DNA of 64,000 nt from an uncultured bacterium (GTDB lineage Bacteria > Patescibacteriota > Minisyncoccia > UBA6257 > 2-01-FULL-56-20), in the NCBI GenBank assembly GCA_963844965.1, contig CAWJQC010000006.1, positions 32,001 to 96,000 of the forward strand, in the 5' to 3' direction. The notes beneath the pieces are model-generated. The model searched no databases, had not been told where the DNA came from, and saw nothing but the letters and a program-made list of their open reading frames with translations. Both the position numbers and the translations under genes were made by a program. This document shows positions 16,797-51,799 of this stretch, one piece after another (within the stretch, counting starts at the first letter, position 1; the number at the start of each line of letters is the position of its first letter).

Positions 16797-18530
16797 ATGA
16801 AACAGGCGGGGCAACTATTAATATTTTCCATTTTACTACTTTTGGCGGTAGGAAGTTTCGCGCGCGCGCAATCCGCGGACACCATCCCCCCGTCGGTTCC
16901 GACCGGCGTTACCGCGACCGTTCTTCCCGGCTTGCAAGTTCAGGTTTCCTGGACCGCATCAACTGACAATGTCGGCGTCGCCGGGTATTACGTTTACCGG
17001 AACGGCATGCTCATCGGCAGTACCTCAGATCTGACGTTCACCGATAAGGTGCCGTTTCAGGGATTATATTCCTACACCGTTTCCGCTTATGACGCGGCCG
17101 GGAATCTGTCGCCAAACCAATCACTTCCTTCCAGCATCGTAACAGTTGCGAGCGATACGACGCCTCCTTCCGTTCCCGCCAGCCTCGCGGTAACAACGAT
17201 AACCAGTTCATCCATCACCATTTCCTGGGCCGCGTCAACGGATAATGTCGGCGTCGCCGGATATTACGTTTACCGGAACGGCAGCCGGCTCGTCATCTCC
17301 ACATCAAGCGCCCTCACAGCGACAACCTATACCGACTCCGGACTCACTTGGGGCACCACCTACATCTATACCGTCGCCGCTTACGACGCATCGGGAAATA
17401 TTTCCAGTCAGTCAAGTCCGGTCACCGCGACCACAATATCCGACATCTATCCCCCCTCAACCCCGTTCCTTCTCTCAGCCACCACAAAATCGTCCGGCGA
17501 AATTGATATCACCTGGAGTCCTTCAACCGACAATGTCGGTGTGGCGGGATACTATATATACCGAGGCGGAAGTCAGATTGCGGCCGTTTCATCCACCCCA
17601 CTCGCCTACAAAGATACAGGCCTTTCCGCCGGAACCGATTATTCCTATTATATTGCCGCCTACGACGCAGCGGGAAATATTTCTCTGGACAGCAATTCGC
17701 TGGACACGACGACATTTCCTCCGGACACTATACCGCCATCAATGCCGGACGGCTTCACGGCCAAGGCCGTTTCCGCGTCGCAAATTCAGTTGAGCTGGAT
17801 GCCAGCATCGGACAACGTCGGCGTCGCCGGATATCATCTTTATAGAAGCGGCGGCCAACTCCCCAATTCCACCACCACTTTCAGCAGCAACAGCCAAATT
17901 TTAGACACCACATCCACTTCCTACATGGATACCGGCCTCGCTTCCGATACAATATACGTCTACGCGGTAGAGGCCTACGATGCAGCAGGAAATCTTTCGC
18001 CGCAATCCACCGTCACCGCGACGACACTTTCGTCTGGAACGATTGCCCCCACGACTACGTCGCCCGCTGTTACGAGCAATCCCACCGCCGTGAATCCACC
18101 AGCGACAACGGCTCCGACCGTCACGGCCACGGCACCCGCAAATAATGCCGCCGTTTTTACAACAACTTTATATATTGGACTGCGCAGCGATGAAGTGAAA
18201 ACTTTGCAGTCATTTTTAATACAGGAAGGTTATCTCGCGGCGGGAAATGACACGGGATTTTTCGGACAACTGACCCAGAGCGCGGTTCAGAAATTCCAGT
18301 GCGACCAGAACATTGTTTGCTCCGGCGATCCGCAGAGCACCGGCTGGGGATTGGTCGGCGCAAAAACGAGAAGCGCACTGAACGCGCTCTATTCCGCTCC
18401 CACTTCCGCGCAAGCGCCCGCCGCGAGCGGCGGCGCTCCATCAGTGGCACAGCTGCAGGCGCAAATTCAATCGCTTGAAGCGCTATTGCAATCGCTTGAA
18501 GCACAACTCAACAACCAAAACGCGAAATAG
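16797..18530 (+). CDS. Secreted protein with four FN3 domains, a peptidoglycan-binding domain and a coiled-coil tail (577 aa)
   Basis: Signal peptide. The 'W.ASTDNVGVAGYY.YR.G' FN3 module occurs four times. PG_binding_1-like 'LQSFLIQEGYLA...GFFGQLTQSAVQKFQ'. C-terminal 'QLQAQIQSLEALLQSLEAQL'. Confidence 0.8.
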   Translation: MKQAGQLLIFSILLLLAVGSFARAQSADTIPPSVPTGVTATVLPGLQVQVSWTASTDNVGVAGYYVYRNGMLIGSTSDLTFTDKVPFQGLYSYTVSAYDAAGNLSPNQSLPSSIVTVASDTTPPSVPASLAVTTITSSSITISWAASTDNVGVAGYYVYRNGSRLVISTSSALTATTYTDSGLTWGTTYIYTVAAYDASGNISSQSSPVTATTISDIYPPSTPFLLSATTKSSGEIDITWSPSTDNVGVAGYYIYRGGSQIAAVSSTPLAYKDTGLSAGTDYSYYIAAYDAAGNISLDSNSLDTTTFPPDTIPPSMPDGFTAKAVSASQIQLSWMPASDNVGVAGYHLYRSGGQLPNSTTTFSSNSQILDTTSTSYMDTGLASDTIYVYAVEAYDAAGNLSPQSTVTATTLSSGTIAPTTTSPAVTSNPTAVNPPATTAPTVTATAPANNAAVFTTTLYIGLRSDEVKTLQSFLIQEGYLAAGNDTGFFGQLTQSAVQKFQCDQNIVCSGDPQSTGWGLVGAKTRSALNALYSAPTSAQAPAASGGAPSVAQLQAQIQSLEALLQSLEAQLNNQNAK

Positions 18531-20834: not shown

Positions 20835-21909
20835 TTAAAGCCGCGCTATCGCCTGCTTCAGCCCGTCAAGCGAAGTGCTCATCATCAAGTATCCCTGATA
20901 CCAGCCGTAGACAAACGTTGCGCCCGGCTGCGAAAACGCAAGCGCTCGGAAAGACGAATTCGCCGCAGTGACATCTTGAAATCCCACAGCCGAAGGGTCG
21001 CCGGGAGAAACCAAAAAGAAATTTTCAATTTTGGTCGTCATTGCTTCAAGTTTCGCCACGTTGTCCTTAAGAAACAGCCAATTTTCCGCCGGCTTCAATT
21101 TCAAAACATACCCAGGCCAAATGCCGTTCGCGTCTTTGTAGGCAAAAACTGTGGCGTCGGGGTTAAAATGCGCGAGAACATACTGTGGGTCAAGAACGGC
21201 GGTATCCGCGGCGGAAAAAATATCGTTCACGTAGGCATCGGTGCCATCGGCTTTCTTCGCGTCAATTTCAAAAAATGTGGACGTGGGGCGGGCTCCGGCA
21301 AAGATACCCGAGAAGCGCTGCGGGAACGTCTGCAGATCCGAAGCGTTCTGCGCGGCGCTACTCAAAGTCAATGTTAGCGTCTGATCAACCGGCTTGCTGA
21401 ACAAAGTGGCGTGCGTGAAACTTGCGCCGACCGGCTGAGGATTGGTATATTGCTGTGTTTGACCTTGCGTCGCAGCCGGAGCCGACGTTCCGGAAACATT
21501 TCCACCGCCAAAGAATATGCTGTAAGCCAAATATATGATGGCCGCGAGAACTATAAGCGCTACAACGGCCACAAAAACAACGGGCCAGAAACATTTTGGG
21601 TCTTACCTCGCTTTCTTTGTTTTCCGGCGCGCGCTCTTTCTTCGCGACTGCCGCGGCTACATCCCCGCCGCCAAGCGCCGCGAATCTTTCCTCAAGCTGG
21701 TTGACCTCTTTGGACGGCTCTTCCTCACTGGCTATCTCGTCATAAGCCGGCAATTTCGGAGCTTTGACGCTTTTAAATTCCGGCCCTCCCCCAGGGCGAG
21801 ACATCGCCTCAAGATCGCTTTGCATCGTCCGCACCTTTACATCCGGCGGCGGAGGCGGAGCCGAAGGAATTTCGGCTATTCCCAAATTTTCGTTTGAAGT
21901 ATCGGCCAT
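20835..21909 (-). CDS. Hypothetical membrane-anchored protein (N-terminal cytoplasmic region, TM helix, extracellular domain), frameshifted near 21575-21595
   Basis: ORFs 21385..21909 and 20835..21572 overlap. The TM helix 'WPVVFVAVVALIVLAAIIYLAYSIFF' reads through from the upstream frame after an A-run. Confidence 0.5.
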
Positions 21910-22003: not shown

Positions 22004-22867
22004 TCACGCAGCTATGGGATACTCAATTTCCTTAGGCAGCAACCCGACCAAAGCCAAGTCGGACCTAATCTCCCCGATAATATCATCATCGGGACGGCCG
22101 TCATTTACCACAACGGCTTTCTTCAACAGGGCATCCTCTTGACCGGGGAAAATCCTAATTGACCGATTAAAAATTTTGGCGGCCCAAACTGACGATTTGA
22201 CCTGGTAAATTATTCTTCCGACAGATTCGCCAGCTTCCCTCTTGACGCTCCATTTCAAACTAACATCTTCGCCATAGTGGTCGCTGATATCGATCTTGCC
22301 TTTCTTTGGACGATGCCTGCCGGAACGCACGCACTCCATCCACAAAACACCGGGCAGAAGTTCCTTAATTGAAGCAAGAAGCCGCTCCGCCAAACGATGA
22401 AATCTCTCCTCGTTGCGGTCGCCTTTCTCGTTCGCCTTGCGCAAACGCCTTAATACGCCCTTCTTACGAATACGAACCCTTGGAGTGTGAAGAATGTTCC
22501 GATTAGCAGAATGACCATAAGAACTCGGCCTATCTGGTGGCGGCGGCGCAACGACTTTTTCTGGTTCGGTTTGAGGCGGCGATGGTTCGACTCGCAGAGA
22601 TTCCTTTTTTACATCTGCGTTTGGTTTGACGACCATCACGCCGACCAGAACACCCCTCGCGTTGTATCTGCACTGAACTTTTCCGCTTTGTTCCAATACC
22701 CTGATGATAAACGCAGAGCGCCGTCTGCCGGTATTAATCGGCCAACCAAAATTATCGAGAAGCATATCACTCAGGCACTTGAGCGGATTTTTCAAATATT
22801 CGCCGGCATGCGCACTCAAATAAACTAAAACCGCGGCTCGTTCTTTATCCGGAATCGCATACAGCAC
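22004..22867 (-). CDS. Hypothetical protein (287 aa)
   Basis: ORF only. Confidence 0.5.
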   Translation of the reverse strand: MLYAIPDKERAAVLVYLSAHAGEYLKNPLKCLSDMLLDNFGWPINTGRRRSAFIIRVLEQSGKVQCRYNARGVLVGVMVVKPNADVKKESLRVEPSPPQTEPEKVVAPPPPDRPSSYGHSANRNILHTPRVRIRKKGVLRRLRKANEKGDRNEERFHRLAERLLASIKELLPGVLWMECVRSGRHRPKKGKIDISDHYGEDVSLKWSVKREAGESVGRIIYQVKSSVWAAKIFNRSIRIFPGQEDALLKKAVVVNDGRPDDDIIGEIRSDLALVGLLPKEIEYPIAA

Positions 22868-22962
22868 ACGACACCTCCGAAACTATAAGCTACCGACATC
22901 TTATCATAAACTAACTACTGCGTCAAGCCGGCTGGCTGGGCTAGACCGTGCCGTGCCAACCA

Positions 22963-25135
22963 CTATTGCAATTGTTTTATGGACAGCCCGATTCTGCCGT
23001 CTTCGTCGGCACGTATTATCTTTGCGCGGACGAAATCGCCCACCTTAACTACTTCGGTGACAGTTTTAACATAGCCGTTTTTAAGTTCGGAAACGTGGAT
23101 CATCCCGTCGCGACCGCCGCCCAAATCCACTATCGCGCCGAAATCCAGGGTTTTTATAACCGTTCCCTCAATGATGTCGCCGATCTTATATTCTTTGGTA
23201 AGCGCCGTGATTTCCGCGACCGCCGCGTCCGCCTTCGCGACATCCGGCCCGAGACGAACACGCCGCCGTCTTCCTCCACGTCAATACTCGTAAGCCCGTA
23301 TTTCGCGATCAAACCGTTGATCATCTTGCCGCCGGGACCGATAAGCGCGCCGATCTTCGACGGATCGATCTTAAGCTGGCGGATTATCGGGACGTACTTT
23401 GACAACTGCGGCCGCGGCTTGGCGATAACGGATCATCATGTATTTCAAGAATCTCAAGCCGCGCTTTCTTCGCCTGCTCAAGCGCTCTTTCCAGCATTTC
23501 GTGCGTCAAACCGTCAACTTTCACGTCCATCTGCAAGGCGTTCACGCCGTCTTCCGTACCAGCAGCCTTCAGATCCATGTCACCGTGATGGTCTTCCGGA
23601 CCCTGGATGTCGGTCAAAATCTTATATATATCCTTTCCGCCAAAGGCGGATCCGCCTTTGGCGGACATCATTAGCCCCATTGCCGTGCCCGCCGCCGGTT
23701 TTTTTATCGGCACACCAGCGTCCATAAGCGACAGAATGGAAGCGCAAACGGTCGCCATTGACGACGAACCGTTTGAGGACAAAATTTCGGAAACAACGCG
23801 GATCGTGTATGGAAATTCTTCTTTAGGAGGTATAAGGGGCTCAATTGCTTTACGCGCCAAATTGCCGTGGCCGATCTCTCTCCTGCCCGGACCGCGGAAA
23901 GCGCCGATTTCTCCGACCGAATATGGCGGGAAATTGTAATGCAGCATAAAACGCCGCTTGCCGGTCATTTCCATCGTCTCTATGAACTGCTCCTGCCCCG
24001 GAGGAGCGAGTGTCGTTATCCCCAAAGCATGCGTGTTTCCCCGCATGAATAAGGCCGACCCGTGCGTGCGCGGGAAAAGCCCGACTTCGGCGTTAAGTGC
24101 GCGTACTTCATCAAGCCGCCTGCCGTCGGGACGCTTTTCTTTTTCCAAAATATTCTTGTGGACAAGTTCGTTTATCGCTTCCTCAAATAAATAGTCCGCG
24201 TCCTTGAGGATGTGTTCTTCTCCGCCAAAGGCGAATCCCTGCCCGCCGGCAGGCGTGGCGCCTCTGGCGGAAAAATGCTCTTTGACATGCGCGCGCAATT
24301 CCTCGCGCAGTTTCCCAGTGGCGCCCGAAAATTCAACCTTGGTCTGTCTGTATACCGCTTCCTCAAGTTTGTCCGATAAGAATTTTTTAACCATAACCTT
24401 CAGCGGTTCGTCAAATTCGTGCAATATAAGCCCCTCTTTGGGCTTGCCGATCTCCTTTATTATCTTTTTCTGGAATTCTATCAGCTTGTCGTTCTCTTTC
24501 TGCGCCAGCGCGAACGCCGCGAGTATGTCTTTTTCGCCTGCCTCGTCGCCGCCAAGTTCTATCATGTTTATCCTTCCCAAAGAACCGGCGAGGAAGGCAT
24601 CAAACTTCGGTTTCGTTTCTTTTATTTCCGAATTTGTCGGATTGATGGCGAACCTGTCGCCGAACTGCGCCACGCGGACGCCGGCGACGGGACCTCCCCA
24701 GGGAATGTCGGAAATACCGAGCGCGGTTGAAGCGCCCGCGAGTCCCACGAATTCCGGGTCGTTCTCTTCGTCGTAAGCGAGAACGGTCACGACCACCTGG
24801 ATTTCGCGCCTGATGCGCTGGTCAAAAAGCGGGCGGATCGTTCTGTCAACCGTCCGTCCCGCCAAAATCGCGTCTTCTGACGGCCGTGATTCGCGGCGTA
24901 TGAAACGGCTGCCGATTATTTTTCCGGCGGCGTAAAATCTTTCCTCATAATCCACGCGGAGCGGCATATAATCCGCGTCAATGTCCTCTTTGGACATTAC
25001 AACGGTCGTGAGCACCGCCGTCTCGCCGTACTGTGCCAAAACAGCCGCGTTCGCTTGTTCGGCAATCGGCGAAATTTCAAGCGTCAAAGTTTTACCACCG
25101 ACATCGGTGGTGAATTTTTTGCGTGGTATTGGCAT
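22963..25135 (-). CDS. pnp: Polynucleotide phosphorylase (PNPase), split by two frameshifts and carrying two palindromic in-frame inserts
   Basis: The RNase PH core (ORF 23384..25135) has 'SSNGSSSMATVCASILSLMDAGVPI' and 'GPEDHHGDMDLKAAG'. The KH domain 'KIGALIGPGGKMING' is in ORF 23154..23405. The S1 domain '...IGDIIEGTVIKTLDFGAIVDLGGGRDGMIHVSEL...' lies in a third frame and ends at 22963. Shifts occur at about 23407-23416 (gcggccgc) and about 23245-23252 (ccggccc). Confidence 0.85.
23636..23665. repeat. Coding-palindrome element copy E2 (in pnp), a perfect 30 bp palindrome
   Basis: tccgccaaaggcggatccgcctttggcgga equals its own reverse complement and encodes SAKGGSAFGG in the pnp frame. E. 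coli PNPase has no counterpart at this position (...GLVKEGDNYVV...). Confidence 0.85.
24221..24271. repeat. Coding-palindrome element copy E3 (in pnp), 51 bp variant
   Basis: tccgccaaaggcg-aatccctgcccgccggcaggcgtg-gcgcctctggcgga. It has the same 13 bp inverted ends and encodes '...SARGATPAGGQGFAFGGE...' in frame. Confidence 0.7.
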
Positions 25136-26418: not shown

Positions 26419-26684
26419 TTATTTTTTTAAGTCTAATTTTTTAATAAGCTTTTCGTATTCCTTGGGTTGTTTCTTCTTGAGATACGCCAAAAGCCGGCGC
26501 CTGTGACTCACCATCTTTAGAAGCCCGCGCCTTGAGTGGTGGTCCTTCGGATTTTTCTTCAGATGTTTCGCGAGTTCGTCAATCTGGCGGGAGATTACCG
26601 CGATCTGCACCTGTGCGGAGCCGTGTCTTTTTCGTGCGCCCGATGTTCGCTGATTATTTTGGATTTAACACGCTTGGTAAGCAT
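26419..26684 (-). CDS. rpsO: 30S ribosomal protein S15, with a 1-nt frameshift near 26620
   Basis: '[23 protein letters not shown]' is in ORF 26419..26610. The N-terminus '[21 protein letters not shown]' is in another frame from ATG 26682-26684. The expected 'acgggctcc' reads 'acggctcc'. Confidence 0.8.
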
Positions 26685-27129
26685 TCGGGTATTGCAACTT
26701 CAATCTGTATGTAAATATTATAACCAATTCGTTAAAAATAAACAAAGAAAGTATCGCGCTTATAAAAATAGGGAGGGCTCGCGGGCGCTTTAGTGAATTT
26801 GCCATTGCGCGGCGAGCCCTTCGTACATCGATACACACATAAGGGCTGGGGGGGCGGTTCGAATACTAGCCGCCGCCCTGCCCAATCTGCGCGCCTGCTA
26901 ACTCCGCCGAGGCCGCAGATCTACGCGGGGGCTCGGGCCGAGACCGCACCATTATCGGCCATTCTTACGATAATCCCTGGCCGAAAAACAGTCGGCTGCC
27001 GCTGCCCGCCGCAACTTGGATCCGAATCCAAAGAGCAACTACTTTACCTGCATTATACACGATGGAAAATATTTGTCAAGTGCCAATTTTGTGATAGATG
27101 AAACGCAACTTGTCCCCACACCAACGCCA

Positions 27130-27235
27130 TGTGCCGCGGGAGAGATTCGAACTCTCATAGTCTTACGACTGCTGGCTCATACTCGCCCCGTACCGAGCTT
27201 TGCTCCGGTGCGGGGAAGCCAGTGCGCCACGCACT
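27130..27235 (-). other. tRNA-like fragment (canonical T-arm GAGAG-TTCGAAT-CTCTC, no complete cloverleaf)
   Basis: The minus strand has a perfect T-arm followed by 'CCGCGGCA', but I could not find a matching 5' acceptor strand. Confidence 0.3.
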
Positions 27236-27245
27236 AAATTTTGCC

Positions 27246-27329
27246 GGTGCCGAGGGTGGGATTCGGACCCACAACCCTTTCGGGACAGCGTCCTAAGCGC
27301 TGCGCGTATTCCATTTCCGCCACCTCGGC
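27246..27329 (-). tRNA. tRNA-Leu (anticodon TAG), long variable arm
   Basis: Acceptor GCCGAGG/CCTCGGC. Anticodon stem CAGCG/CGCTG with loop CTTAGGA. Variable arm about 16 nt. T-arm GTGGG-TCCGAAT-CCCAC. Discriminator A followed by CC. Confidence 0.7.
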
Positions 27330-27639
27330 AAAATTTAGTGCGGTGTTCCGCCACCGCGACATTTGCGCGGGGATGAACCTGCCTACCAGCAAGCAGGCCC
27401 GCCAACCTGCCCGCACCGCTCCCATCACTGTTTATCTTAAATCCCGCCATCGTTTTATTCAACAACACGGCAGAATTCCGCAACGCCCATAAAAATGCCG
27501 GTGAGATAAAGCTCCATGGGCTTACCTGCGCTTCGCCGAGGCTGCGGCAAGGCGAGCGCCCGTGGTATCTGGAAGCTTTACCCCGCCCCGACCGCGGTCG
27601 GGGCGGGGTATTCAGCGGGGATTTAATATAAAAAACCAA

Positions 27640-27681
27640 AAGCCCCCTCCGGCGCAAGGCCGAAGGGGGCTTTTTTCTTTT
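27640..27681. terminator. Rho-independent terminator hairpin at the end of the pilin cluster
   Basis: aaaagccccctccggcgcaaggccgaagggggctttttt. Confidence 0.6.
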
Positions 27682-27706
27682 CTGATTTAATCTCTAAATC
27701 AGAAAT

Positions 27707-27892
27707 TTAGCAGCCGGTGAACGAAGCGCCGAGGAAGCTGCCGATGATCAGAGGAACGCCCTTCGCGAGAACGGCGATGACCACGGCGACTACGGCGTAG
27801 ATAAGCGTGCTCGAAGCGCCCTTAACCTTCTCCGGATCGCCAGAGGCAGTCAAATACTTGTAGGCGGCGACGAGTATGAAAACAATCGCCAA
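27707..27892 (-). CDS. T4SS-pilin-like (TrbC/VirB2-like) small protein A (61 aa)
   Basis: Two hydrophobic helices flank 'AAYKYLTASGDPEKVKGASSTLIYAVVAVVIAVLAKGVP'. The family-level resemblance to PF18895-type pilins is inference. Confidence 0.6.
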   Translation of the reverse strand: MAIVFILVAAYKYLTASGDPEKVKGASSTLIYAVVAVVIAVLAKGVPLIIGSFLGASFTGC

Positions 27893-28131
27893 AACGACGA
27901 GAAGCGTGAAAAGCCAGTTGACGGCGGTGCAGATAAGCGCGATAAATCCGGTTAAGCTCGTAACGGTCGTCGGCGCTGTCTGTTGGGTCCCGCCACAAAA
28001 GGCAGGGTCAACCCCAAAACCAGCGATTTTATTGACTTCATGTTAAGAATTCGGTATTGACCGGAATAATGTTTTTTTTCGACCTTTCTCCTTATATAAA
28101 AAGCATAGCACAAACCATGCAACACTACAAC

Positions 28132-28518
28132 CTAAGGACATAACGCTACCGCTGCCGAGTTCGCACCAAAGATATTAAGAACAATCAGCGGTACGGATTT
28201 CGCAAGCAATGCCACCACCAAGCCAACCACGGCGTAGGTAAGCATCTTCGTGGCTTCGCTTACTTTGGTCGGGTCGCCGGAAGAGGTCATATACTTATAC
28301 GCCGCGACAAGCACCAAAAGTATGACCAATGCCATGAGAATGTACCACATCCAGAAAGCAACCTCGCAAATCACATTGTCAATAAGCTGATCTGGAGTGC
28401 TATATGTCGGTACGGGAATTACCGATTGTGCGAAAACCTTATTCGCAGAAAGGAGCAGCAACTGGGATAGAAGCAGAACACCATACCGATATTTCACGGC
28501 TGAAAATAAATTTTTCAT
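28132..28518 (-). CDS. T4SS-pilin-like protein B (128 aa, signal peptide)
   Basis: 'LVAAYKYMTSSGDPTKVSEATKMLTYAVVGLVVALLAKSVPLIV' is paralogous to A. Confidence 0.65.
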   Translation of the reverse strand: MKNLFSAVKYRYGVLLLSQLLLLSANKVFAQSVIPVPTYSTPDQLIDNVICEVAFWMWYILMALVILLVLVAAYKYMTSSGDPTKVSEATKMLTYAVVGLVVALLAKSVPLIVLNIFGANSAAVALCP

Positions 28519-28644
28519 ACAATATTTTTTAACTTTATAACCGGCTGAAACGCTTATTTTCGGCCTTTTACGTTGTCTTTATCATACCACAAACTCCGAG
28601 AATTGCACTGGGGATAAAGGTGCTGCTTAACCTACCGCACCACC

Positions 28645-28992
28645 TCAACAGCCTCCACTGACGCTACTGGCACCGACTATACTGGCGACTATTGACGGGA
28701 CGGACTTCGCGAGAATTGCCACAATGATGCCTGCAGCGGCATAAGCAAGCGTCTTATGCGCCGAACTCACTCTTTCTGCGTTATCGCCGCCGGTAACATA
28801 GAGAAACCCGGCGTAAATTATCATAATCACGGAAAGCGCCATCAGAATGTAAAACATGGCAACGGCGATCGGGCAGAGAATTTTACTGGTAATATCCGAA
28901 ACGCCGCCGCTGAAAGTTATGCCGGAAACGTCGGCATAAGCGCCGCTTACGCCAAAAAGTTTCAGGAAACCGAGAATCAAAACCGGCGACAT
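28645..28992 (-). CDS. T4SS-pilin-like protein C (115 aa)
   Basis: 'YAGFLYVTGGDNAERVSSAHKTLAYAAAGIIVAILAKSVPSIV'. Confidence 0.65.
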   Translation of the reverse strand: MSPVLILGFLKLFGVSGAYADVSGITFSGGVSDITSKILCPIAVAMFYILMALSVIMIIYAGFLYVTGGDNAERVSSAHKTLAYAAAGIIVAILAKSVPSIVASIVGASSVSGGC

Positions 28993-29092
28993 TATGGTCC
29001 TCGTTTTCGGCGAGTTTCACAATGTAATTAACTATTTTCATAGTCCTTTCCTGCCTATTAATTTTAACACACCGGGCAAGTTATAAAACTAT

Positions 29093-30819
29093 TCACCCCC
29101 CGACCCCGAAAATCGCCTGGATAAGGCTGACCACGCCTTTCGCCGCGAGAACCGCCACAAAACCGATGGCCGCGTAAAGAATCGTGTTCCTGCCGTTCTT
29201 GAACTTTTCCGGATTGCCGCCGGCGGTTATTATCTGGAATCCGCCGTAAAGAACCATAATGGCGACTATGGGAACGGCTATCGTGATCAAAAGGTCAATG
29301 ATCTTATTGGCACAATCCGTGATGGTTGAGCACGCGCCCTGGAGAGGATTGGTAAGCGAGCCGCTGAGAGTCACGTTGCTGCCGGGTGATTGACCACTTG
29401 GCGACTGACCGCTGGGTGATTGACCGCTTGGCGACTGACCGCTGGGTGATTGACCGCCAGGCGTGCTCGCAGTCCATTGGCAAGCACCATTACCACCGAA
29501 AGCGCCAACACACGCACTCTGGGTCGTATAAAGCGTGCAGTTGGCGGACTGACAGTTCGCGCCAGTAGTATCTTGGGTACAAGTACCTCCGCTACACGCA
29601 GCAGTGCATGAAGCGACAGTATAAGAACAGCCACCAGTGCTGCAGTAATATGGCGTCACGGCGCTACACGTGCCGCCGCTGGTGCCAGCAGGCGATGTTG
29701 TAACACATTCACCGGTAGTAGTATTGCAGTAGGGGGCGTTACTGTATGCAGCGGCGCACTGACTGTTGCTGCTACACCCAACGCATGCATTATTAACGCA
29801 GATGGGCTGGGTCTCGACCGTGCATTTGGTGCTATCAGTGCCACAGCCGCTCGGCGCGGTCGTAACACATTCACCGGTAGTAGTATCGCAGTAGGGAGCA
29901 TTACTATATGCAGCGGCGCACTGACTATTACTGCTACATGCAGAGCATATATTATTGACGCAGATAGGTGCCGTCTCGCTCGTACAAATACACTACTATC
30001 ACCACTGCAACTGGTCGGCGAGGTTGTGACACATTCACCGGTATTAGTATTGCAGTAAGGAGCATTACTATATGCAGCGGCGCACTGACTATTACTGCTA
30101 CACCCAACGCACGTGCCACTAGAGCCACAGATGGGCTGGGTCTCGCTCGTGCATTGACTGCTATCGGTGCAGCTACCGCCGCCGCTGCATTGATTGGTGC
30201 TCGGCAAGCCGGGCGCCAGACAGCCCGAAGAACCATACCAGCCGCATCCCGCACTACAGCAGGTAGGTTGATCAATGCAATTACTGCAACTGGATAAGTT
30301 ACACGAACTGCCGCCGGTGCTCGCATTGCATACTTGCCCGCCGGCGCAACCACTATCGGAGCTGCAGGAGTTGCCAACGCCGCTACTATTGGCGTTATTT
30401 GACAGACAACTGCCAATCTGGGGGGATGCCACCGCGCAAGTGCAACCGACCCCAGTATAACAATTTCCCGCCGGCGAAGCGGAAGCGCAACTGCAAGTAA
30501 CCCCATCAGAATTAGTATTGCATACCTGGCCACCAGCGCAGCCGGAGTCGGTCGTGCAGTTTCCGCCGCCGTTGGATGGGTTGCAAGACACGGAACAATT
30601 ACTATCGGAGTAAGCGTTGGTTCCACAGCCTGCTGGATCTAAACAATTACCGGCCAGACAGTCATCGTTCGTCATGCAACTCGAACCGCAGGCTTCATAG
30701 AACGTACTGGGACAGGCCTGCGCGTGACTTACAGATGGTCGGCCAAAACCGAAAATAAAAGCGGCGATGACCACAAAAGCGAAAATCAGAAGCCGCTTCT
30801 TCATAATTTTATTATACAT
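29093..30819 (-). CDS. Cysteine-rich tandem-repeat secreted protein fused to a C-terminal T4SS-pilin-like domain (frame breaks inside the repeats)
   Basis: The N-terminal ORF (29656..30819) has a signal peptide and repeated 'S/TDSGCAGGQVCN' Cys modules, then runs out of frame through three ~130 bp DNA repeats. ORF 29093..29659 overlaps it by ATGA. It contains (GQSPS)x5 and ends 'LYGGFQIITAGGNPEKFKNGRNTILYAAIGFVAVLAAKGVVSLI'. Confidence 0.6.
29390..29462. repeat. 15-nt tandem repeat x5 encoding (GQSPS)n
   Basis: ccgctgggtgattga / ccgcttggcgactga units. Confidence 0.75.
29686..30110. repeat. Three tandem ~130 bp repeats inside the Cys-rich gene
   Basis: '...cattcaccggtagtagtattgcagtagggngcnttactntatgcagcggcgcactgact(a/g)tt(a/g)ctgctaca...' recurs three times with indels. 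Confidence 0.7.
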
Positions 30820-30828
30820 TATTTGGCG

Positions 30829-31347
30829 CTATTCGGGCAGAAACTTAGACCATAGTCCTTGCCAGACAGAGCTTTCGTTAACGAAAGCTGGCACCGTCAG
30901 GGCGACTTTCAATAGGCAGGCCTGCGGCTGCGTAATACCCAGGGCGCTGAGAAAATCAGATTCCGCCCGACTGCGCACTTCGTTGAAAGGATTGTTAAGT
31001 ATAGTGATGAGGAAGCTGCTGTCAGCAGGAAAGTAAAGAATGTGGTAATCTCCGGTGCTTCTGAACAAAACATAATCACCCGCTTCTACTCTCACGGCAT
31101 TTTTATAGGGATTTTTTACTTCCACGCTGCCGTTGGGCGTACCGATGGTAATCGTATCTCCCTCGGGGACGGGGATTGGCGGCGGAGGAGGCGTTGGTGA
31201 CGTGGGCGGGGAAATCGGCGGCAAGCCGCCGGGACCGGTACTTCCGGCAGGAGAGGTCTTGTTCCTGACAACCAAAACGACAACTACTCCGACGACTAGC
31301 ACAAGAAAAATTACCGCTATAATAATTATTCTTCTCGTTTTTAACAT
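30829..31347 (-). CDS. Membrane-anchored protein with a Pro-rich linker (172 aa)
   Basis: N-terminal TM helix 'IIIIAVIFLVLVVGVVVVLVV', then 'PISPPTSPTPPPPPIPVPEG'. Confidence 0.5.
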   Translation of the reverse strand: MLKTRRIIIIAVIFLVLVVGVVVVLVVRNKTSPAGSTGPGGLPPISPPTSPTPPPPPIPVPEGDTITIGTPNGSVEVKNPYKNAVRVEAGDYVLFRSTGDYHILYFPADSSFLITILNNPFNEVRSRAESDFLSALGITQPQACLLKVALTVPAFVNESSVWQGLWSKFLPE

Positions 31348-32366
31348 GATAACTTATGAGGACTTGGCGGGGTGAAATTGCATGTGCAGTTCACACTCCA
31401 GTTATCCCATGCCCGGGAATTGGCGGCAAGGGGACAAGCAGCGTTAATATTCGGGCTCGATTTTGTGGCGTCGGTGACACACTTTTTATACAGTGATGTA
31501 TTTACAACCTGACAATGGTAAACATGGTTTGTGCTGTCCCACTGAGCTGCGTGGTTAAAGGCGCTGGGACAGCCATCGCCGTTCACGTCATTTACGGTCA
31601 GGTTGATTTGGAACAGTCCCCACGAGAAAACACTGTTATCTTCCGCGCACTTATCCGACGTGCTCGGCGCCGTAGGATCGCCGCCACTTTCCTTGCTGGC
31701 AATGGAGGAAGCGTCATACGGACCATTACCGATACCGCCGAAACACGAACTGTTGAGGTTGTCTTGTGAAGCATCGCCGCTTGTAAGTGGCGCGCAATTT
31801 CCACTTGAATTGTTGCACGGACTGCCCGGATCGCAACTGCCCGGATAGCAATTTGAGGTTCCTCCGGCATTACTTTGACAATCTGCCTGGCTTGAGTAAT
31901 TAGCTACACACATATTTCCGGCGGCTGATACCTGACACAGTTGGTAAGATGTAGAGCCTCCGCTCGCCGTCGGCGCCGCCACCTGTACCGAAACACCAGG
32001 GAGCAGTAAATTCCAATTTGTCAGATTAGGATTGATGATGTTTAAAATCGTATAAGCTCCGACAAGGAGCAGGAGTCCGACTAATGCACCTTTCACCCAC
32101 TCTTTTCCTTCTGTTTGGCCAGTGGGGTTTCCGGCTGCCAGCGTGTATTTTATCCCGCCATAGACGATAGCTCCGAACGCCAGAATGCCGGCAAGCATCA
32201 TGGCAAATCTATAAAGATAGTCAACGAAGTTCCCCAGGCCGGAGCTGCCAGAAGGTTGACCGGGCAGATTTGTGTAGATAGTGACCTGCGCCCGCGCCAC
32301 CGCGGCGTAAAATAAACAGAAGGAAGCAAAGACCAGTGGACGTAATTTTTTAAACAAGGTTTTCAT
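31341..32366 (-). CDS. T4SS-pilin-like N-terminal domain fused to a Cys-rich lytic-transglycosylase-like (VirB1/SLT-like) domain (341 aa)
   Basis: Pilin-like 'FGAIVYGGIKYTLAAGNPTGQTEGKEWVKGALVGLLLLVGAY'. The C-terminal 'SKESGGDP...SVFSWGLFQIN' matches the SLT catalytic E-S ... GLxQ(I) pattern, with many Cys. Confidence 0.55.
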   Translation of the reverse strand: MKTLFKKLRPLVFASFCLFYAAVARAQVTIYTNLPGQPSGSSGLGNFVDYLYRFAMMLAGILAFGAIVYGGIKYTLAAGNPTGQTEGKEWVKGALVGLLLLVGAYTILNIINPNLTNWNLLLPGVSVQVAAPTASGGSTSYQLCQVSAAGNMCVANYSSQADCQSNAGGTSNCYPGSCDPGSPCNNSSGNCAPLTSGDASQDNLNSSCFGGIGNGPYDASSIASKESGGDPTAPSTSDKCAEDNSVFSWGLFQINLTVNDVNGDGCPSAFNHAAQWDSTNHVYHCQVVNTSLYKKCVTDATKSSPNINAACPLAANSRAWDNWSVNCTCNFTPPSPHKLSC

Positions 32367-32842
32367 TATCCCGAAACAGTGCAGTTAAACGGACCGCCGA
32401 ACCCCTGGATGAAACTTGAAAGGCTGAAAAAGTCCACGAACAATTTCACGATGACAAAGGCGAATATGACTATAAGCAAGCCGATTAAAGCGCCGGTCAG
32501 AATTTTTTTCGCGTTCTCGCGTCGAGCCGGACTGCCGCCGGAGGTAAGATACGTGATGCCGCCCCAAGCAAAGAGAATCGGCGTGAAAACGAAAAGTACG
32601 AGCGTTATGCCGAAATAAATTATGTTCACCATGGTCTGGATAATGTCGCAGACGCTCGTGCAGTATTTTTTCGCGGCTGCCTGTCCGCTGTAAATGCCCG
32701 TGCAGGACACAAGCCCGCCGGTGCCCCAATAACCACCGGGAAATATAGATGGCGTCTGAAGCACGTCGGCGGAAGCCACCAGCGGCGCGGCGAGAACGAT
32801 GACAAAAAACGAAACACAAGAGATTAGTAATAGTCTGCGCAT
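32366..32842 (-). CDS. T4SS-pilin-like protein F (158 aa)
   Basis: 'FTPILFAWGGITYLTSGGSPARRENAKKILTGALIGLLIVIFAFVIV'. Confidence 0.6.
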   Translation of the reverse strand: MRRLLLISCVSFFVIVLAAPLVASADVLQTPSIFPGGYWGTGGLVSCTGIYSGQAAAKKYCTSVCDIIQTMVNIIYFGITLVLFVFTPILFAWGGITYLTSGGSPARRENAKKILTGALIGLLIVIFAFVIVKLFVDFFSLSSFIQGFGGPFNCTVSG

Positions 32843-32894: not shown

Positions 32895-34217
32895 TTATTT
32901 CGTCGCGTGCATCAGCGCGGTTACCTGGTCCTGCGCCTGGCTCAGGGCGTGCCACGAATCAAGCTTCCCGACAAGGACGCTCTCTATCGCGCCGTTCATA
33001 ATGCCGTCTATCGCTTCGTCGTCCGCTTCGTACCACGAACGCGCGGTCAGGGCCTGCTTCGCAAAAATTCCCAGGGTCGGATCGTTTTCGTACGAAGCGA
33101 TAGAACTGCGAAGCGCCGGCGGTTCACCGGTGTCGTCCAAATAAGCCTTCGCGGCGTTGGCGTTCGTGGTCGCGTAGATCACAAAATCCCAAGCCCAGCC
33201 CGAAACCTTGGATTGTTTGGAAACCGCGAGTCCCGTGTACCGAGGGAAATTAACGGCCACATTCGCCCCCGTGGGTTGGGGCATGGGAGCAACGGCGAAA
33301 TTCAGGAACGGGCTGCGTCTTTTTATGTCCAACACAGCGCTCATGTAGTCAAAGATCATCGCGGTTTTCCCGTTCACAAAACTGTCAACAGAATTCTGCT
33401 GACTGTCGTTCCATGTGTAATAAGGAGAAGCGACGTTCGCGAATTGCAGGTAAAAGTTAAAAGCGGAAACGCCGGGATCGGTCCCGTCCTCTCTCGCGGA
33501 GGCGAAGGTCGCCCCATAATTGTCCGGAGTGGTCATGCCGGCGCCGTTTTGCATTATCAAAAGCTCCAATATGTCTGTCGCGGCATCCACGCTTTGCTCC
33601 GAACCGCCGATCGCCGCGGCGGCACGCGTAAGCTGCCGGCTTGAACCGACCGTGCGCAACTGCGGCACGATTTTCAAAAAGTCATCCCAGGTCGCCGGCG
33701 GATAAACAATGCCGGCATTGTCAAAATAACTTTTGTTGTAAATCAAGGCAAGCGTATCCAAATAAAAGGGCAGGGCGTAAACCTGACTGCCGGACGCCGA
33801 CGCAAAATCCTGCTCTATCGTGTATGGAAAAAGATTGCGCAACTTCACTATGTCAAATTGGCTCACGGGCGCGGGAAACAGTTTATCTTCCTGCTGCGGC
33901 AGTTCGTGGTTGGTAATTTCCAAAACATCCGGTCCTGTTCCGGCGGCAAGCGCGTTCAAAAGCGAAGTTCTATAGTCCGCGGCGTTGAGCTGCGTGTAAT
34001 CTATCGTCGCGCCGGGACGAAGAACTTTATAACCCTCAATAATCTTGTTGAAAATTCCCCTGCTTTCCGTCCCCCATACCGTCAGCTTGAAATCGGTGCT
34101 TATTATGGTCGGGCGCGAATACTTAACGACAAGAACCACGAGCGTTACCGCGATAGCGACGCCGACGACCGTTATAAAGATTTGATTTCGGGAAAGTTTC
34201 ATCAAAAAAATTTTCAA
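32895..34217 (-). CDS. ABC transporter substrate-binding protein (family 1, sugar-type), membrane-anchored
   Basis: N-terminal anchor followed by a MalE-like fold pattern. No permease or ATPase gene is adjacent. Confidence 0.7.
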   Translation of the reverse strand: MKIFLMKLSRNQIFITVVGVAIAVTLVVLVVKYSRPTIISTDFKLTVWGTESRGIFNKIIEGYKVLRPGATIDYTQLNAADYRTSLLNALAAGTGPDVLEITNHELPQQEDKLFPAPVSQFDIVKLRNLFPYTIEQDFASASGSQVYALPFYLDTLALIYNKSYFDNAGIVYPPATWDDFLKIVPQLRTVGSSRQLTRAAAAIGGSEQSVDAATDILELLIMQNGAGMTTPDNYGATFASAREDGTDPGVSAFNFYLQFANVASPYYTWNDSQQNSVDSFVNGKTAMIFDYMSAVLDIKRRSPFLNFAVAPMPQPTGANVAVNFPRYTGLAVSKQSKVSGWAWDFVIYATTNANAAKAYLDDTGEPPALRSSIASYENDPTLGIFAKQALTARSWYEADDEAIDGIMNGAIESVLVGKLDSWHALSQAQDQVTALMHATK

Positions 34218-46470: not shown

Positions 46471-46787
46471 GGGGATGATCGGCTTCGATAAGGATAAGTC
46501 CTGAACTGGCAAGCCAAGAGCTAACTTGTAAATCTGGCAAAAAATCAATAACTGCCAACTCAAAAGTTGCAGCTCCAGCATTCGCTTACGCGTAACGTTG
46601 GACATCGGCTGATCCGGGCTTCTTGGGTTAATACCGGTGTTATATAAGGAAGCTCGTTCCGAGTTGACGATTCTACGCTCGGCACTAAACACAGAATCAT
46701 TTCTGTCTAGTTTAACTGGACTACGCTTGTAGAAGGTTTAAGCGATTTTATCCTTACACGGCGGTTCAATTCCGCCCATCTCCACTA
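46471..46787 (+). ncRNA. ssrA: tmRNA (ssrA), tag ORF 46554..46592 (ANSKVAAPAFAYA*)
   Basis: 5' 'GGGGATGATCGGCTTCGATAAGG' matches the tmRNA consensus GGGGxxG....GGxUUCGA. The 3' T-arm is GGCGG-TTCAATT-CCGCC. The 3' strand CATCTCC pairs with GGGGATG, including a G3-U70 pair. The internal frame starts at a GCC resume codon and ends at TAA. Confidence 0.8.
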
Positions 46788-46960
46788 AAACAAAAATACT
46801 CGCTCCTTGTGAGCGGGTGTTTTTGTTTCTTGTAAAATGGTCTGGCGGAATTGAACGAGGGGTGGGCCGGAGGGGAAACTCGGTGTCCCCTCCGTGTAGG
46901 AAATTACTCAAAACCGAGGGTTGTGAGAGAGCGAGTTGCTGTATAGCGACTCGCGACGTG

Positions 46961-46980
46961 AAATTCCGCCCATCTCCACA
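46961..46980 (+). repeat. Direct repeat of the tmRNA 3' end, about 180 bp downstream of ssrA
   Basis: 'aattccgcccatctccac' is identical to tmRNA positions 46767-46784. Confidence 0.7.
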
Positions 46981-47186
46981 TAACCAGAATTGAACTTTAG
47001 AAAACCCTCCAGAAGGGTTGAAAAATCTAGCCCGACCCTGATTTTTTCTTGGTTTTCCATTTTGCGTTTTTGAAACAGTATCACGCGAGGGAGTGAATAT
47101 AAAAAAAACCGACACCTATTAGTGCCGGTTGTAAAGGATAGGTTTCTTTAGACAGTGATTCGACGGCTTTTTGCCGTTTTTTTTCG

Positions 47187-47969
47187 TTAAGCCGCAATCT
47201 TCTCGGCAAACACGGACGGCGGCATCTTGAGGGCGGAGTGGATCCGCGTGTGGTTGTACTGCCACAAGGTGCTGTAGATCTCCGCCACGAGCTCGCCGAA
47301 GGTCCCGAACCGGTTGGGATCACCGAGGTCAATCTTGAACTTGTCATAGAACGATTCCTGGTAGCCGTTTTCCCATGGGGCACCGGGCCGCGACCGCGAG
47401 ATCGTGATGCCACAGTCCCCCAGTGTATCGGTGAACGCTCGTGCCTTGTACTCGCTGCCGTTGTCCGAATGGAAGATGACCGGATGCGGATGGTGGAAAA
47501 GCGCGTTGGCCAGGGTCTGTATCGTGAGGGGCGATCCTTTCCGCAACGCCACATGGACGCCCATCAATCGTCTCGTGAAAAGATCGAGTATCGTGGACAC
47601 GTACACTTTCTTGCCGCGATACAGGAACTCCGTGAAATCGGTTGCCCAGACGTGGTTCGCGTACGAGGGCATGATGGCAAGTAAGAGGTTCGGAAAGGCC
47701 CGCGATGCCTTTGATTTCCGGTATTTCCTGCCTCGCCTCCGGTACGGCCTTATGCCGAAGATTCGCATGACGCGCTGCGCTCGCGGACGGCTCACGCCCA
47801 GAGCTTGTCCCAAGCGCCGGGAACCGTATGCCGGATGGCGCTGCAATTCTTCTTCCATGCGGATCTTGAGCGCCCAATCTTTCTTGTCCTGCCGTGATAC
47901 GTAGTAGAGCGATGCCCGCGAGACGCCCATGGCCCGCGCCATGGCGGACTTGTTCCGCTTTTCCGTCAA
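47187..47969 (-). CDS. IS3 transposase OrfB (rve integrase core, DDE)
   Basis: 'HSDNGSEY' integrase-core motif. It has a TTG start and is normally made as an OrfAB fusion. Confidence 0.8.
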   Translation of the reverse strand: MTEKRNKSAMARAMGVSRASLYYVSRQDKKDWALKIRMEEELQRHPAYGSRRLGQALGVSRPRAQRVMRIFGIRPYRRRGRKYRKSKASRAFPNLLLAIMPSYANHVWATDFTEFLYRGKKVYVSTILDLFTRRLMGVHVALRKGSPLTIQTLANALFHHPHPVIFHSDNGSEYKARAFTDTLGDCGITISRSRPGAPWENGYQESFYDKFKIDLGDPNRFGTFGELVAEIYSTLWQYNHTRIHSALKMPPSVFAEKIAA

Positions 47970-48229
47970 TTCTTTTTTTGGGCCTGGGAGAGCTTCACGG
48001 TGAGCTCGCCCACCACTTCAAACAGCTCCCTGTTCTGCTTCTGGAGACGGCTGAACTCGCCCCAGGAAGGGACGCCCGATGCTCCTGCGCCTAGCCAATT
48101 GTAGATGGTGGACTCGTGCAAACCGTGGTCCTTCGCAGCCTGCGCTACGGGGACTCCTTCTTCCTTCACCCGGCGGAGGATGTCCGCCTTCACTTCCTTC
48201 GCAATCCGATGCCCTTTTTTGTTGCTCAT
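47966..48229 (-). CDS. IS3 transposase OrfA (HTH)
   Basis: 'GVPVAQAAKDHGLHESTIYNW' HTH. It ends '...AQKKN*' across the A7G site. Confidence 0.75.
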   Translation of the reverse strand: MSNKKGHRIAKEVKADILRRVKEEGVPVAQAAKDHGLHESTIYNWLGAGASGVPSWGEFSRLQKQNRELFEVVGELTVKLSQAQKKN

Positions 48230-48257
48230 GACACAATGGTAGTTTGTTTCGACCTTT

Positions 48258-48467
48258 GTGTCTAAATTATCCTATCCGGGTCAAAGCTTCAAGATTCGCC
48301 CACCGGTCTTTATACCAATTTATAATAACAGCAATAAATTACACAAACAGTTATCAGAACTCTCCAAGGAGGCTCATAAAAACTATTCCAATGAAAAAGT
48401 TATTGCCGAAATCGACCAAGAGATAAACGAAGTTTACTTGAAAGTTTGCCAGCAAGAAAATAAATAG
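48258..48467 (+). CDS. Small AT-rich hypothetical ORF (69 aa) upstream of the recombinase
   Basis: ORF only. It partly overlaps the IS right end. Confidence 0.25.
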   Translation: MSKLSYPGQSFKIRPPVFIPIYNNSNKLHKQLSELSKEAHKNYSNEKVIAEIDQEINEVYLKVCQQENK

Positions 48468-48529
48468 CAATGAAAATACTCTTATAACTCTTCGAAGAAA
48501 TGATGGGGATACTTAATTTAAACTAAGCC

Positions 48530-50041: not shown

Positions 50042-50064
50042 TGCTGCCGTTACACCATAGGCAC
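49990..50064 (-). tRNA. tRNA-His (GTG) with encoded G-1 and CCA
   Basis: 8-bp acceptor GGTGCCTA/TAGGCACC. Anticodon stem AGAGT/ACTCT with loop CTGTGGC. T-arm CTCGG-GTTCGAAT-CCCGA. Confidence 0.8.
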
Positions 50065-50162
50065 CATTATTCCTACACTTGAAAATTTACCCGAATTCCG
50101 CATATTTTTCAAGTAAGCTGGGAAAGTTTCTGGGGCTTTGCTATAATGAATTCCAACTGAAT

Positions 50163-50858
50163 ATGTCCGTCATTTTGACGAACCTTGGGCTTCTGGCGAG
50201 CCAAAACATGTTTTTGGCTTATTTCATTATATATATCGCCACGATTTTTTTGGGTAACATTTCCGCCTTTGCCGCGTTCTGGGTAGTGTTCCACGGAGTT
50301 CTGGGATTCTGGGGCGTCCCGCTTCTTATACTCACGATTTTCGCGGCCGATATTAGCGGCGATCTCCTGTGGTATTCATTGGGTCGCGCACTTCGCGACA
50401 CACGCTTCGGCAACTTCGTAAAAAATCATCTGCGGCACCACGAAAAAATAGAACGCTCCGTGCAAAAGAACGGCGCGGGCTGGATAATCATGGCGAAGTT
50501 TCTATACGCTTCCGCCTTCCCTGTGATATTTCTAATCGGCTGGACGAGAATAAAATTCAAAAAGTTTTTCAAGACATCGCTTTTGTCGGTCGCGATTTGG
50601 CTGCCGATCCTCGCCGGCCTCGCCTACGGACTATTCTCCGGCCTCTCGCCCCTTGGCGCCGTAAGCATTTTCAAACACTTTGAACTCATCCTCTTAATCG
50701 GCTTGGTGATTTTCTTCGTGGCCGATTACTTCATTGCCAAACTCGCCAGAAAAATTCTCGGCAGGAAGCTGGGCATTCTGAATGGCAATGGCAACGGTAA
50801 TAATCAATGTCCTGAAGCAAAATCAGGCGTAAATCCTAGGAGCGCCGATTGCACTTGA
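50163..50858 (+). CDS. DedA/SNARE-associated family membrane protein
   Basis: Multi-TM protein with a 'VPLLILTIFAADISGDLLWYSLGR' DedA-like region. Start chosen at MSVILTNLG. The listed ORF starts at 50079. Confidence 0.55.
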   Translation: MSVILTNLGLLASQNMFLAYFIIYIATIFLGNISAFAAFWVVFHGVLGFWGVPLLILTIFAADISGDLLWYSLGRALRDTRFGNFVKNHLRHHEKIERSVQKNGAGWIIMAKFLYASAFPVIFLIGWTRIKFKKFFKTSLLSVAIWLPILAGLAYGLFSGLSPLGAVSIFKHFELILLIGLVIFFVADYFIAKLARKILGRKLGILNGNGNGNNQCPEAKSGVNPRSADCT

Positions 50859-50985
50859 CTTTTATTAAAATGTAGTCTATCATATGGACAGCCTGGGCCA
50901 ACGGTCAATCTCAATTAATCAACAGAAAAACCGAACCTGAGGCGTAACTTTGATAATGTAACAACGCAGAGGAGAGAGGTATGAG

Positions 50986-51648: not shown

Positions 51649-51689
51649 AATCAGAGGTTAAAGTTTAAACGTACCGAGGCCTGTCCGCA

Positions 51690-51718: not shown

Positions 51719-51799
51719 TGTACACAGATTTAGTTAGACGTGGAATCCCAGCAACGGGATCACCACAAATTTGATAGCCAATACAAGGAGGGCCTAACC

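Follow-up and report, generated by a model that had tools for sequence, protein, structure and literature searches.

We analyzed a 64-kb stretch of DNA (hereafter the window, in whose positions all coordinates are given) from contig CAWJQC010000006.1 of an uncultured Patescibacteriota bacterium of the lineage Minisyncoccia (GenBank assembly GCA_963844965.1). The locus under study occupies positions 27707-32842 of the minus strand, where seven consecutive, co-directional genes follow one another in the order F-E-X-D-C-B-A within 5.1 kb. Six of them encode proteins with a VirB2-like type IV secretion system (T4SS) pilin domain, two of which also carry a large additional domain, and the seventh (X) encodes a membrane protein of a different family. 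The genes and the features that border them are as follows (aa, amino acids; nt, nucleotides).

F: 32366..32842, minus strand, 158-aa pilin-domain protein; PF18895 33.2 bits
E: 31341..32366, minus strand, 341-aa fusion of a pilin and a lysozyme/SLT-like domain; PF18895 34.5 bits (head)
X: 30819..31347, minus strand, bitopic membrane protein of about 175 aa; non-pilin family
D: 29093..30819, minus strand, one gene of about 573 aa, Cys-rich ectodomain and C-terminal pilin hairpin; PF18895 46.5 bits (tail)
C: 28645..28992, minus strand, 115-aa simple pilin; PF18895 35.0 bits, TrbC E value 0.0036
B: 28132..28518, minus strand, 128-aa simple pilin; PF18895 42.0 bits, TrbC E value 3.2e-4
A: 27707..28041, minus strand, simple pilin of about 111 aa, start ATG at 28041; PF18895 33.7 bits (61-aa open reading frame)
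Terminator-like hairpin: 27638..27674, minus strand, intrinsic-terminator type, 16-bp stem with 10 G-C pairs and then a T-run, 33 nt past the A stop
Solute-binding protein (SBP): 32895..34217, minus strand, SBP_bac_1-type and membrane-anchored, 52 nt upstream of F; weak NCBIfam SBP matches

The first four genes overlap (F/E by 1 nt, E/X by 7 nt, and X/D by 1 nt, the corrected X stop and the D start sharing TAATG), and F-E-X-D is thus translationally coupled; spacers of 90 to 126 nt separate D, C, B, and A. The hairpin downstream of A likely marks the end of the transcription unit. Beyond it lie tRNA-Leu, rpsO, an NYN-domain gene, and pnp, while gyrA and the SBP gene lie upstream of F. The SBP gene is a conserved neighbor and may be co-transcribed with F; no ABC permease or ATPase gene was found near it, making it an orphan SBP.

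In a Pfam scan, all six pilin-domain genes scored above the gathering threshold of PF18895 (T4SS_pilin, 26.6 bits), at 33.2 to 46.5 bits, and three of the six, including B and C, also gave weak matches to TrbC/VirB2 (PF04956). A first-pass annotation, made from the sequence alone, had proposed T4SS pilins here, and the profile searches bear out that identity. It had also counted seven members of one paralogous family; six stand, while X belongs elsewhere and two of its entries, a Cys-rich protein and a "D-tail," turned out to be one gene. A pilin hidden Markov model (HMM) that we built from homologs and ran against open reading frames (ORFs) of at least 45 aa across the 64 kb found no pilin domain beyond these six, and the clustering is therefore not due to chance. 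The six domains share 18 to 48% pairwise identity. Reading of the six proteins revealed in each a Sec-type signal peptide with an AxA|Q/D cleavage site (F, ..LVASA|DV; E, ..VARA|Q, aa 1-26; D, ..VSHA|Q; C, ..GAYA|D; B, ..KVFA|Q). Of the two kinds of processing site suggested for checking, signal peptidase sites were thus present, but no LPXTG sortase motif was seen on reading the seven proteins. Together with the alignment of the six domains and a structural model of E, these sites outline the layout typical of VirB2/TrbC pilins, in which a short polar or charged loop connects two hydrophobic helices. With six pilin-domain genes and one non-pilin gene (X) on one strand within 5.1 kb, the locus has the composition of a Patescibacterial VirB2 array. 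F has an N-terminal extension of about 40 aa that contains three cysteines, followed by the two-helix hairpin and a C-terminal cysteine.

We compared the locus with other genomes by surveying GTDB at one genome per species. Of 117 stretches confirmed by tblastn, the best 80 were kept and annotated with our own HMMs and by clustering of large ORFs; the source species is not among the representatives, and the best match was 38% identical. The 80 loci span Parcubacteria/Paceibacterota, Moraniibacteria, Doudnabacteria, Nomurabacteria, Kaiserbacteria, Kuenenbacteria, and Ryanbacteria, and the closest relatives of the locus are metagenome-assembled genomes of Minisyncoccia/Paceibacterota. An episymbiont-type Patescibacterium as the host, as the first-pass annotation had supposed, is supported. 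The closest related contig (L001) keeps the order F-E-X-D-pilins, with identities of 76% for A (over 111 aa), 74% for X, 56% for E, 55% for C, 48% for F, 42% for B, and 30% for D. More distant loci, in which E is only about 35% identical (L002, L004, and L005), still show the arrangement of the window, S1 - MBL-fold - gyrA - SBP - F - E - X - three or four pilins, and have no VirB4 gene within 10 kb. In 13 of the 80 species loci, the gene immediately upstream of the fusion gene encodes an F-like pilin.

The small pilins A to C each carry a pair of cysteines, one immediately ahead of the first helix or at its start and one at the C-terminus or next to it (A, C38/C111; B, C51/C127; C, C40/C115, where Cys40 precedes the first transmembrane helix and Cys115 is the last residue). 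Among 76 distinct short pilin ORFs from the window and loci L001 to L086, 38 have both cysteines, 26 have neither, 9 have only the N-side and 3 only the C-side residue, a correlation with a Fisher P value of 1.7e-9 that is uncorrected for shared ancestry. Such a pair may form a disulfide that joins both ends of the mature pilin, a redox equivalent of the head-to-tail cyclization of T-pilin and TrbC.

Three of the seven genes had to be reconstructed. Three-frame translation merged the Cys-rich protein (387 aa) and the D-tail (188 aa) into a single gene, D, whose frame is broken by the loss of 1 nt from a TTT run near 29986-29989; the frame change falls inside the second of three tandem repeats, and the repeat runs on perfectly in the other frame. 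In A the frame shifts within a CCC run near 27985-27987, and in X it shifts close to the 3′ end, near 30874, where the corrected C-terminus (...GLSFCPNSAK) restores the nearly invariant LSFC motif of its family. Elsewhere in the window, pnp (23384-25135, minus strand) has two frameshifts, with its KH and S1 domains in two other frames (22850-25135), and the gene at 20835-21909 (minus strand) is also split. Because a housekeeping gene is broken as well, we judge the indels in A, D, and X to be probably homopolymer assembly errors and not biology. Programmed frameshifting or phase variation as their cause was ruled out, the runs being only 3 nt long and pnp being affected too.

The same indels could be read as signs of a decaying pseudogene cluster, and a 382-aa truncated piece of D is indeed stored in the database as a separate protein. 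We consider decay very unlikely: all three indels sit in short homopolymer runs, the frames are open and conserved on both sides of each, the orthologs of A, D, and X in L001 are all intact, and the damage to the essential pnp and to the split gene at 20835-21909 points to long-read assembly error. The frequency of one-base indels in this assembly means that gene calls from the contig need care. Two further overlapping same-strand ORF pairs, at 9074-13014 (minus strand) and 51740-53801 (plus strand), may also be split genes.

The fusion protein E consists of the signal peptide (aa 1-26), a pilin hairpin (aa 44-111; nt 32034-32237), a Cys-rich flexible linker (aa 127-188), and a lysozyme/SLT-like domain (aa 190-335; nt 31362-31799) that contains Glu226-Ser227 and the motif G250-LFQIN255. 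About 200 homologs were found, many of them full length (270 to 300 aa) and many with precomputed assignments to PF18895 plus PF18896 (SLT_3, "lysozyme like domain"). In an alignment of 56 homologs, E226, S227, G250-L-F-Q-I-N255, and four cysteines are invariant, in line with the earlier proposal of a pilin placed before an enzyme domain with an E-S...GLFQI signature. PF18895 is matched by 55 of the 56, SLT_3 (cut-off 27 bits) by 45 with a best E value of 2.7e-10, and SLT (PF01464) by 6, so that the placement of E in the SLT_3/lysozyme-like superfamily would be a transitive one, made via its homologs. An AlphaFold2 model of E computed with the family alignment contains helices at 44-76 and 81-111 (pLDDT about 90) and a folded domain at 190-330 (pLDDT above 90), with the disordered Cys-rich linker between them. 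In it the catalytic Glu terminates a helix and the G-L-x-Q-I strand motif comes next, as in lysozymes, and hhalign set E226-S227 on E35-S36 of hen lysozyme and SWGLFQIN on DYGILQIN. The predicted fold and the alignments thus support a lysozyme-like domain with a catalytic Glu. In this alignment Asp52 of hen lysozyme corresponds to Ser248, which tends to favor a transglycosylase-like or goose-type mechanism, although D238 is nearly invariant. By analogy with VirB2/TrbC pilins, whose hairpin has both ends facing outward, we infer that the C-terminal enzyme domain of E and the N-terminal ectodomain of D would both lie outside the membrane.

A gene that fuses a pilin to an SLT domain is the rule among the surveyed loci (63 of 80); in the other 17 the SLT domain sits on another, often large, protein (non-pilin examples, 636 to 1124 aa). 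Gene X follows the lysozyme gene directly on its 3′ side in 63 of the 80 loci, including 14 of the 17 with a non-pilin SLT protein, and the two form an almost obligate pair across species. X has an N-terminal transmembrane helix (aa 4-28) and a Pro-rich linker that leads to an extracellular alpha/beta domain; this domain spans about 110 aa and includes a conserved Cys pair. It has no relative in Pfam, NCBIfam, or PDB sequences, and a profile of its family found nothing meaningful in the PDB. A word-index search found a single homolog; exhaustive phmmer found 1260 cluster representatives at E values up to 1e-3 (417 up to 1e-10), almost all of 160 to 180 aa, a family of at least 1260 clusters at 50% identity for which there is no Pfam model. 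A Rosetta-stone fusion of X to E was sought in the 15 species that lack a separate X and was rejected: the gene that we denote Y389 directly follows the lysozyme gene there, and only transmembrane segments resemble X.

The pairing raises the question of whether E and X are an effector and its immunity protein or inhibitor, in which case a wall-degrading weapon, anchored by a pilin or displayed on a pilus, would act on the wall of the host bacterium, X would guard that of the producer from its place on the producer's surface, and the pilins would carry the cargo. X tracks the SLT_3 gene and not the pilin domain, the 7-nt overlap couples its translation to that of E, and its N-in/C-out topology would put its folded domain on the side of the membrane where the lysozyme domain lies; a canonical VirB1 is, moreover, missing from most Patescibacterial T4SS genomes according to a recent survey (PMC12102498). 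Tight adjacency would suit an activator, a scaffold, or a structural T4SS subunit equally well, however, and the 15 species in which Y389 takes the place of X do without the supposed immunity gene. We regard this explanation as unlikely.

Behind its signal peptide, D has a Cys-rich ectodomain of about 450 aa, which includes three tandem repeats of about 50 aa (C..ET.PIC...C..CSSNSQCAAAYSNAPYC.T.TGECVTT), then a (SPSGQ)5 linker and the C-terminal pilin hairpin. The reconstruction upholds the earlier observation of a pilin behind a long secreted Cys-rich region. Apart from its own truncated ORF, the ectodomain had no match at E values up to 1e-3 among 5.8 billion proteins, and in Pfam only a subthreshold Paramecium surface-antigen repeat (E value 0.036). 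The ortholog in L001 is an intact protein of 510 aa with a Cys-rich N-terminal part and two pilin domains, and at 30% identity D is the most divergent gene of the locus. Such fast divergence would fit a role of the ectodomain in host contact. Decorated pilins of this kind recur in the surveyed loci, where 32 of 119 pilin-only ORFs are at least 200 aa long; these are extended at the N- or the C-terminus, in many cases by Cys-rich sequence, and several have two tandem pilin domains.

The surveyed loci differ in what stands upstream of the lysozyme gene. In 29 of the 80, a VirB4-like gene (PF19044, 84 bits; PF12846) lies within 10 kb upstream, usually in the order VirB6-like - VirB4 - one variable gene - [pilin+]SLT - X - Y389 and often near dnaA/dnaN or radA/recG. 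Like VirB1, the lysozyme-like orthologs in these species are encoded inside a T4SS cluster, which E in the window is not. In 15 others the SBP context is as in the window, with gyrA also upstream in 12, and no VirB4-like gene occurs within 10 kb; the SBP ahead of the module may have a functional link to it. The first-pass annotation had reported no T4SS ATPase in the window, and our searches agree. When 29 VirB4-like and 14 VirB6-like proteins and other families of the clusters were searched against the window with tblastn, the only match was an unrelated M23 peptidase at 43.8 kb, and the only Pfam matches among the large ORFs of the window were to a housekeeping FtsK and to surface proteins, the other ORFs having none. 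Nor was a complete conjugative T4SS, the arrangement that would have made this an ordinary plasmid-type locus, found in the 64 kb.

The locus is probably a detached pilin/VirB1-like module of a chromosomal Patescibacterial T4SS (Minisyncoccia/Paceibacteria) that sits apart from the VirB4/VirB6 core, downstream of gyrA and an SBP gene. We read it as a relocated E-X-pilin module because the same module adjoins VirB4 in other lineages; a minimal, stand-alone apparatus, along the lines suggested earlier, is not supported. Separation of this kind has precedent: when Quinonero-Coronel et al. (2025; PMC12102498) screened 3,035 genomes for PF18895 and PF04956, 1,948 VirB4-containing assemblies had VirB2-like genes, which lay close to virB4 in only 1,135 and away from it in about 40% of genomes. 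In Southlakia epibionticum, a series of predicted pilins in the T4SS cluster is essential (Wang et al. 2023; PMC10633639), SEML1_0014 to SEML1_0019 being PF18895 members, and the essentiality of the array is also reported in PMC12102498 and PMC12857230. Few machines have been shown to be essential to Patescibacteria living as epibionts, and the T4SS is among them (PMC11665869, PMC12857230); a 2025 review describes these systems as unique among those of monoderms in their potential to build pili (PMC12857230).

A different reading of the same genes takes the PF18895 hairpin as a mere two-helix membrane anchor, and the locus as a set of Sec-exported surface proteins (an adhesin, a wall hydrolase, and small membrane proteins) with no functional tie to any T4SS. 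It would account for the lack of a T4SS ATPase in the window and in the surrounding 10 kb of all 15 SBP-context loci, and for fusions on either end of the hairpin, as a generic anchor predicts. Yet the fusion gene stands just downstream of VirB4/VirB6-like genes in 29 of the 80 species, the essential T4SS cluster of S. epibionticum includes PF18895 pilins (PMC10633639), three of the genes have weak TrbC/VirB2 matches, and six paralogous anchors, of which A to C bear no cargo, would be hard to explain. We find this reading rather improbable.

An origin in a mobile conjugative element, as a remnant of an integrative and conjugative element (ICE) or plasmid, is extremely unlikely. It would draw on the nearest NCBIfam model, NF045849 (ICE pilin-like conjugal transfer protein), which the pilins match at 18 to 29 bits, below its cut-off of 40, and on a serine recombinase and an IS3-type transposase 15 to 20 kb away. 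Against it, no relaxase, coupling protein, or VirB4 was found in the window; the flanks are housekeeping (gyrA, SBP, tRNA-Leu, rpsO, pnp); and synteny is held across species in which E is only about 35% identical. The G+C content of the locus (0.50 to 0.53) is the same as that of the window, and so the locus is not a foreign island.

Several observations weigh against a detached T4SS module and temper our preference for it. VirB4, VirB6, VirD4, and VirB11 are all absent from the 64-kb window, so that the link of the locus to a T4SS would follow from homology and from association in other species. The match of E itself to SLT_3 is 16.1 bits (E value 0.016), under the cut-off; the hhalign alignment to hen lysozyme is weak (E value 0.074), Foldseek of E against the PDB gave no match, and the E family profile found no lysozyme among PDB sequences. 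Ser248 stands where C-type lysozymes have Asp52, and the enzyme may be either a lytic transglycosylase or a hydrolase. Three of the seven genes are frameshifted as deposited, and the locus would be decaying if the indels were real. MPF-FATA systems of monoderms, finally, are normally without pili, and a T4SS pilus has not been reported in any Patescibacterium (PMC12857230).

If the locus is such a module, the proteins would be exported by Sec and, after cleavage of the signal peptide, each hairpin would sit in the membrane with its two ends exposed outside. The small pilins A to C would then be extracted by a VirB4-driven machine, encoded elsewhere, and built into a pilus-like or channel-lining structure. 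E, in the role of VirB1, would cut peptidoglycan locally in the cell's own wall for passage and possibly also in the host wall at the contact site, with X binding or regulating its lysozyme domain, while D and F would be decorated minor subunits for adhesion or host specificity. More tentatively, the VirB2-like hairpin might be a modular carrier that displays enzymes or adhesins on a T4SS-built surface structure, E-X being a tethered wall-cutting effector with a dedicated partner (immunity or regulator) directed against the host wall where epibiont and host touch. If true, the "missing VirB1" would have been found, and the epibiont would have a direct route to the nutrients of the host cytoplasm.

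For this window, the outcome is mostly the correct annotation of an ordinary member of the Patescibacterial T4SS. The wider point is that a lysozyme-like domain follows VirB4 in many lineages, usually fused to a VirB2-like hairpin, and that a PF18895 search presumably counts the fusion as a pilin. On the side of the machine that meets the host, three components can be named: the pilin fused to a lysozyme domain, X, and the decorated pilins. The pilin array is already described, and the fusion, X, and the decorated pilins are common in databases; the first-pass annotation had called the fusion arrangement undescribed, which fits the literature searched (PF18896/SLT_3; Patescibacteria with VirB2 and lytic transglycosylase), where we came across no paper that deals with the fusion, with X, or with the decorated pilins, but not its frequency in species loci and database proteins.

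Other parts of the window hold features unrelated to the pilin genes. At 46471-54670, a tmRNA is followed by an IS3-type transposase (47187-47969, minus strand) and a large serine recombinase (48530-50041) that overlaps tRNA-His; several ORFs here have no Pfam match, G+C content reaches 0.58 compared with a window mean of about 0.51, and the region may be an integrated element. ARAGORN identified a tRNA-Ile with the anticodon TAT (UAU) at 57534-57608 (minus strand). A UAU tRNA-Ile is an uncommon bacterial way of reading AUA, most bacteria using a lysidine-modified CAU tRNA. Three large proteins are possible adhesins or envelope proteins of an epibiont: a 1617-aa surface protein with six Big_7 domains as well as fn3 and SH3_3 domains (1300-6153, minus strand), a 577-aa protein with fn3 repeats and PG_binding_1 (16797-18530, plus strand), and a 1008-aa Glu/Lys/Ala-rich protein with no Pfam match (9988-13014, minus strand).

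Among known systems, the locus most invites comparison with the VirB2 arrays of Patescibacteria (PMC12102498, PMC10633639; the "Sec secreted array" of TM7x). Such arrays comprise 2 to 11 genes in 383 assemblies, with a mean identity of 25% and a maximum of 54% (PMC12102498); here there are six tandem PF18895 genes at 18 to 48%. An interspersed non-pilin gene, Sec signal peptides, a chromosomal location, and the lack of a relaxase are also shared. Unlike those arrays, this one follows gyrA and an SBP gene instead of lying beside virB4, and it includes two domain-fused members and, at its head, the pilin-lysozyme fusion with X, on which the papers are silent. S. epibionticum also has a stand-alone, nonessential pilin gene beside the gene for ribosomal protein S15 (SEML1_0024 and SEML1_0025; Wang et al. 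2023), and in the window pilin A is likewise followed by rpsO, after tRNA-Leu (26419-28041), which may be coincidence or an old linkage.

E resembles VirB1/TrsG/CD419-type hydrolases of the SLT superfamily in its lysozyme-like fold and its Glu-Ser ... G-L-(M/F)-Q-I signature; its orthologs in 29 of 80 species are, like those hydrolases, encoded with T4SS genes, just after VirB4, and it would be expected to open the wall. It differs in that a VirB2-like hairpin holds it at the membrane through a flexible linker of about 80 aa, where those enzymes are soluble or lipid-anchored, and in belonging to SLT_3 (PF18896, with E itself subthreshold) and not to SLT (PF01464). Its domain is disulfide-rich and structurally nearest to C-type lysozyme, has no second domain of the CHAP/NlpC type, and is nearly always paired with X. 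The lysozyme-like protein of S. epibionticum, SEML1_0006, belongs to yet other families (PF18013/PF01832) and has no pilin fusion (PMC10633639).

The pilins themselves share with VirB2, TrbC, and TraA (the Agrobacterium T-pilin, RP4 TrbC, and F TraA) a long signal peptide, a mature length of about 70 to 90 aa, and two hydrophobic helices with a short charged loop. They differ from these in their monoderm host, in the correlated Cys pair that many members carry where no cyclization machinery is evident, and in their multiple divergent paralogs with domain-fused members, and their polymerization is putative. The VirB2 families of Bartonella and Anaplasma have likewise arisen by tandem amplification and divergence, which is thought to vary the surface or widen the host range; these bacteria, however, are diderms that infect eukaryotic cells, their VirB operons are complete, and none of their pilins is fused to another domain.

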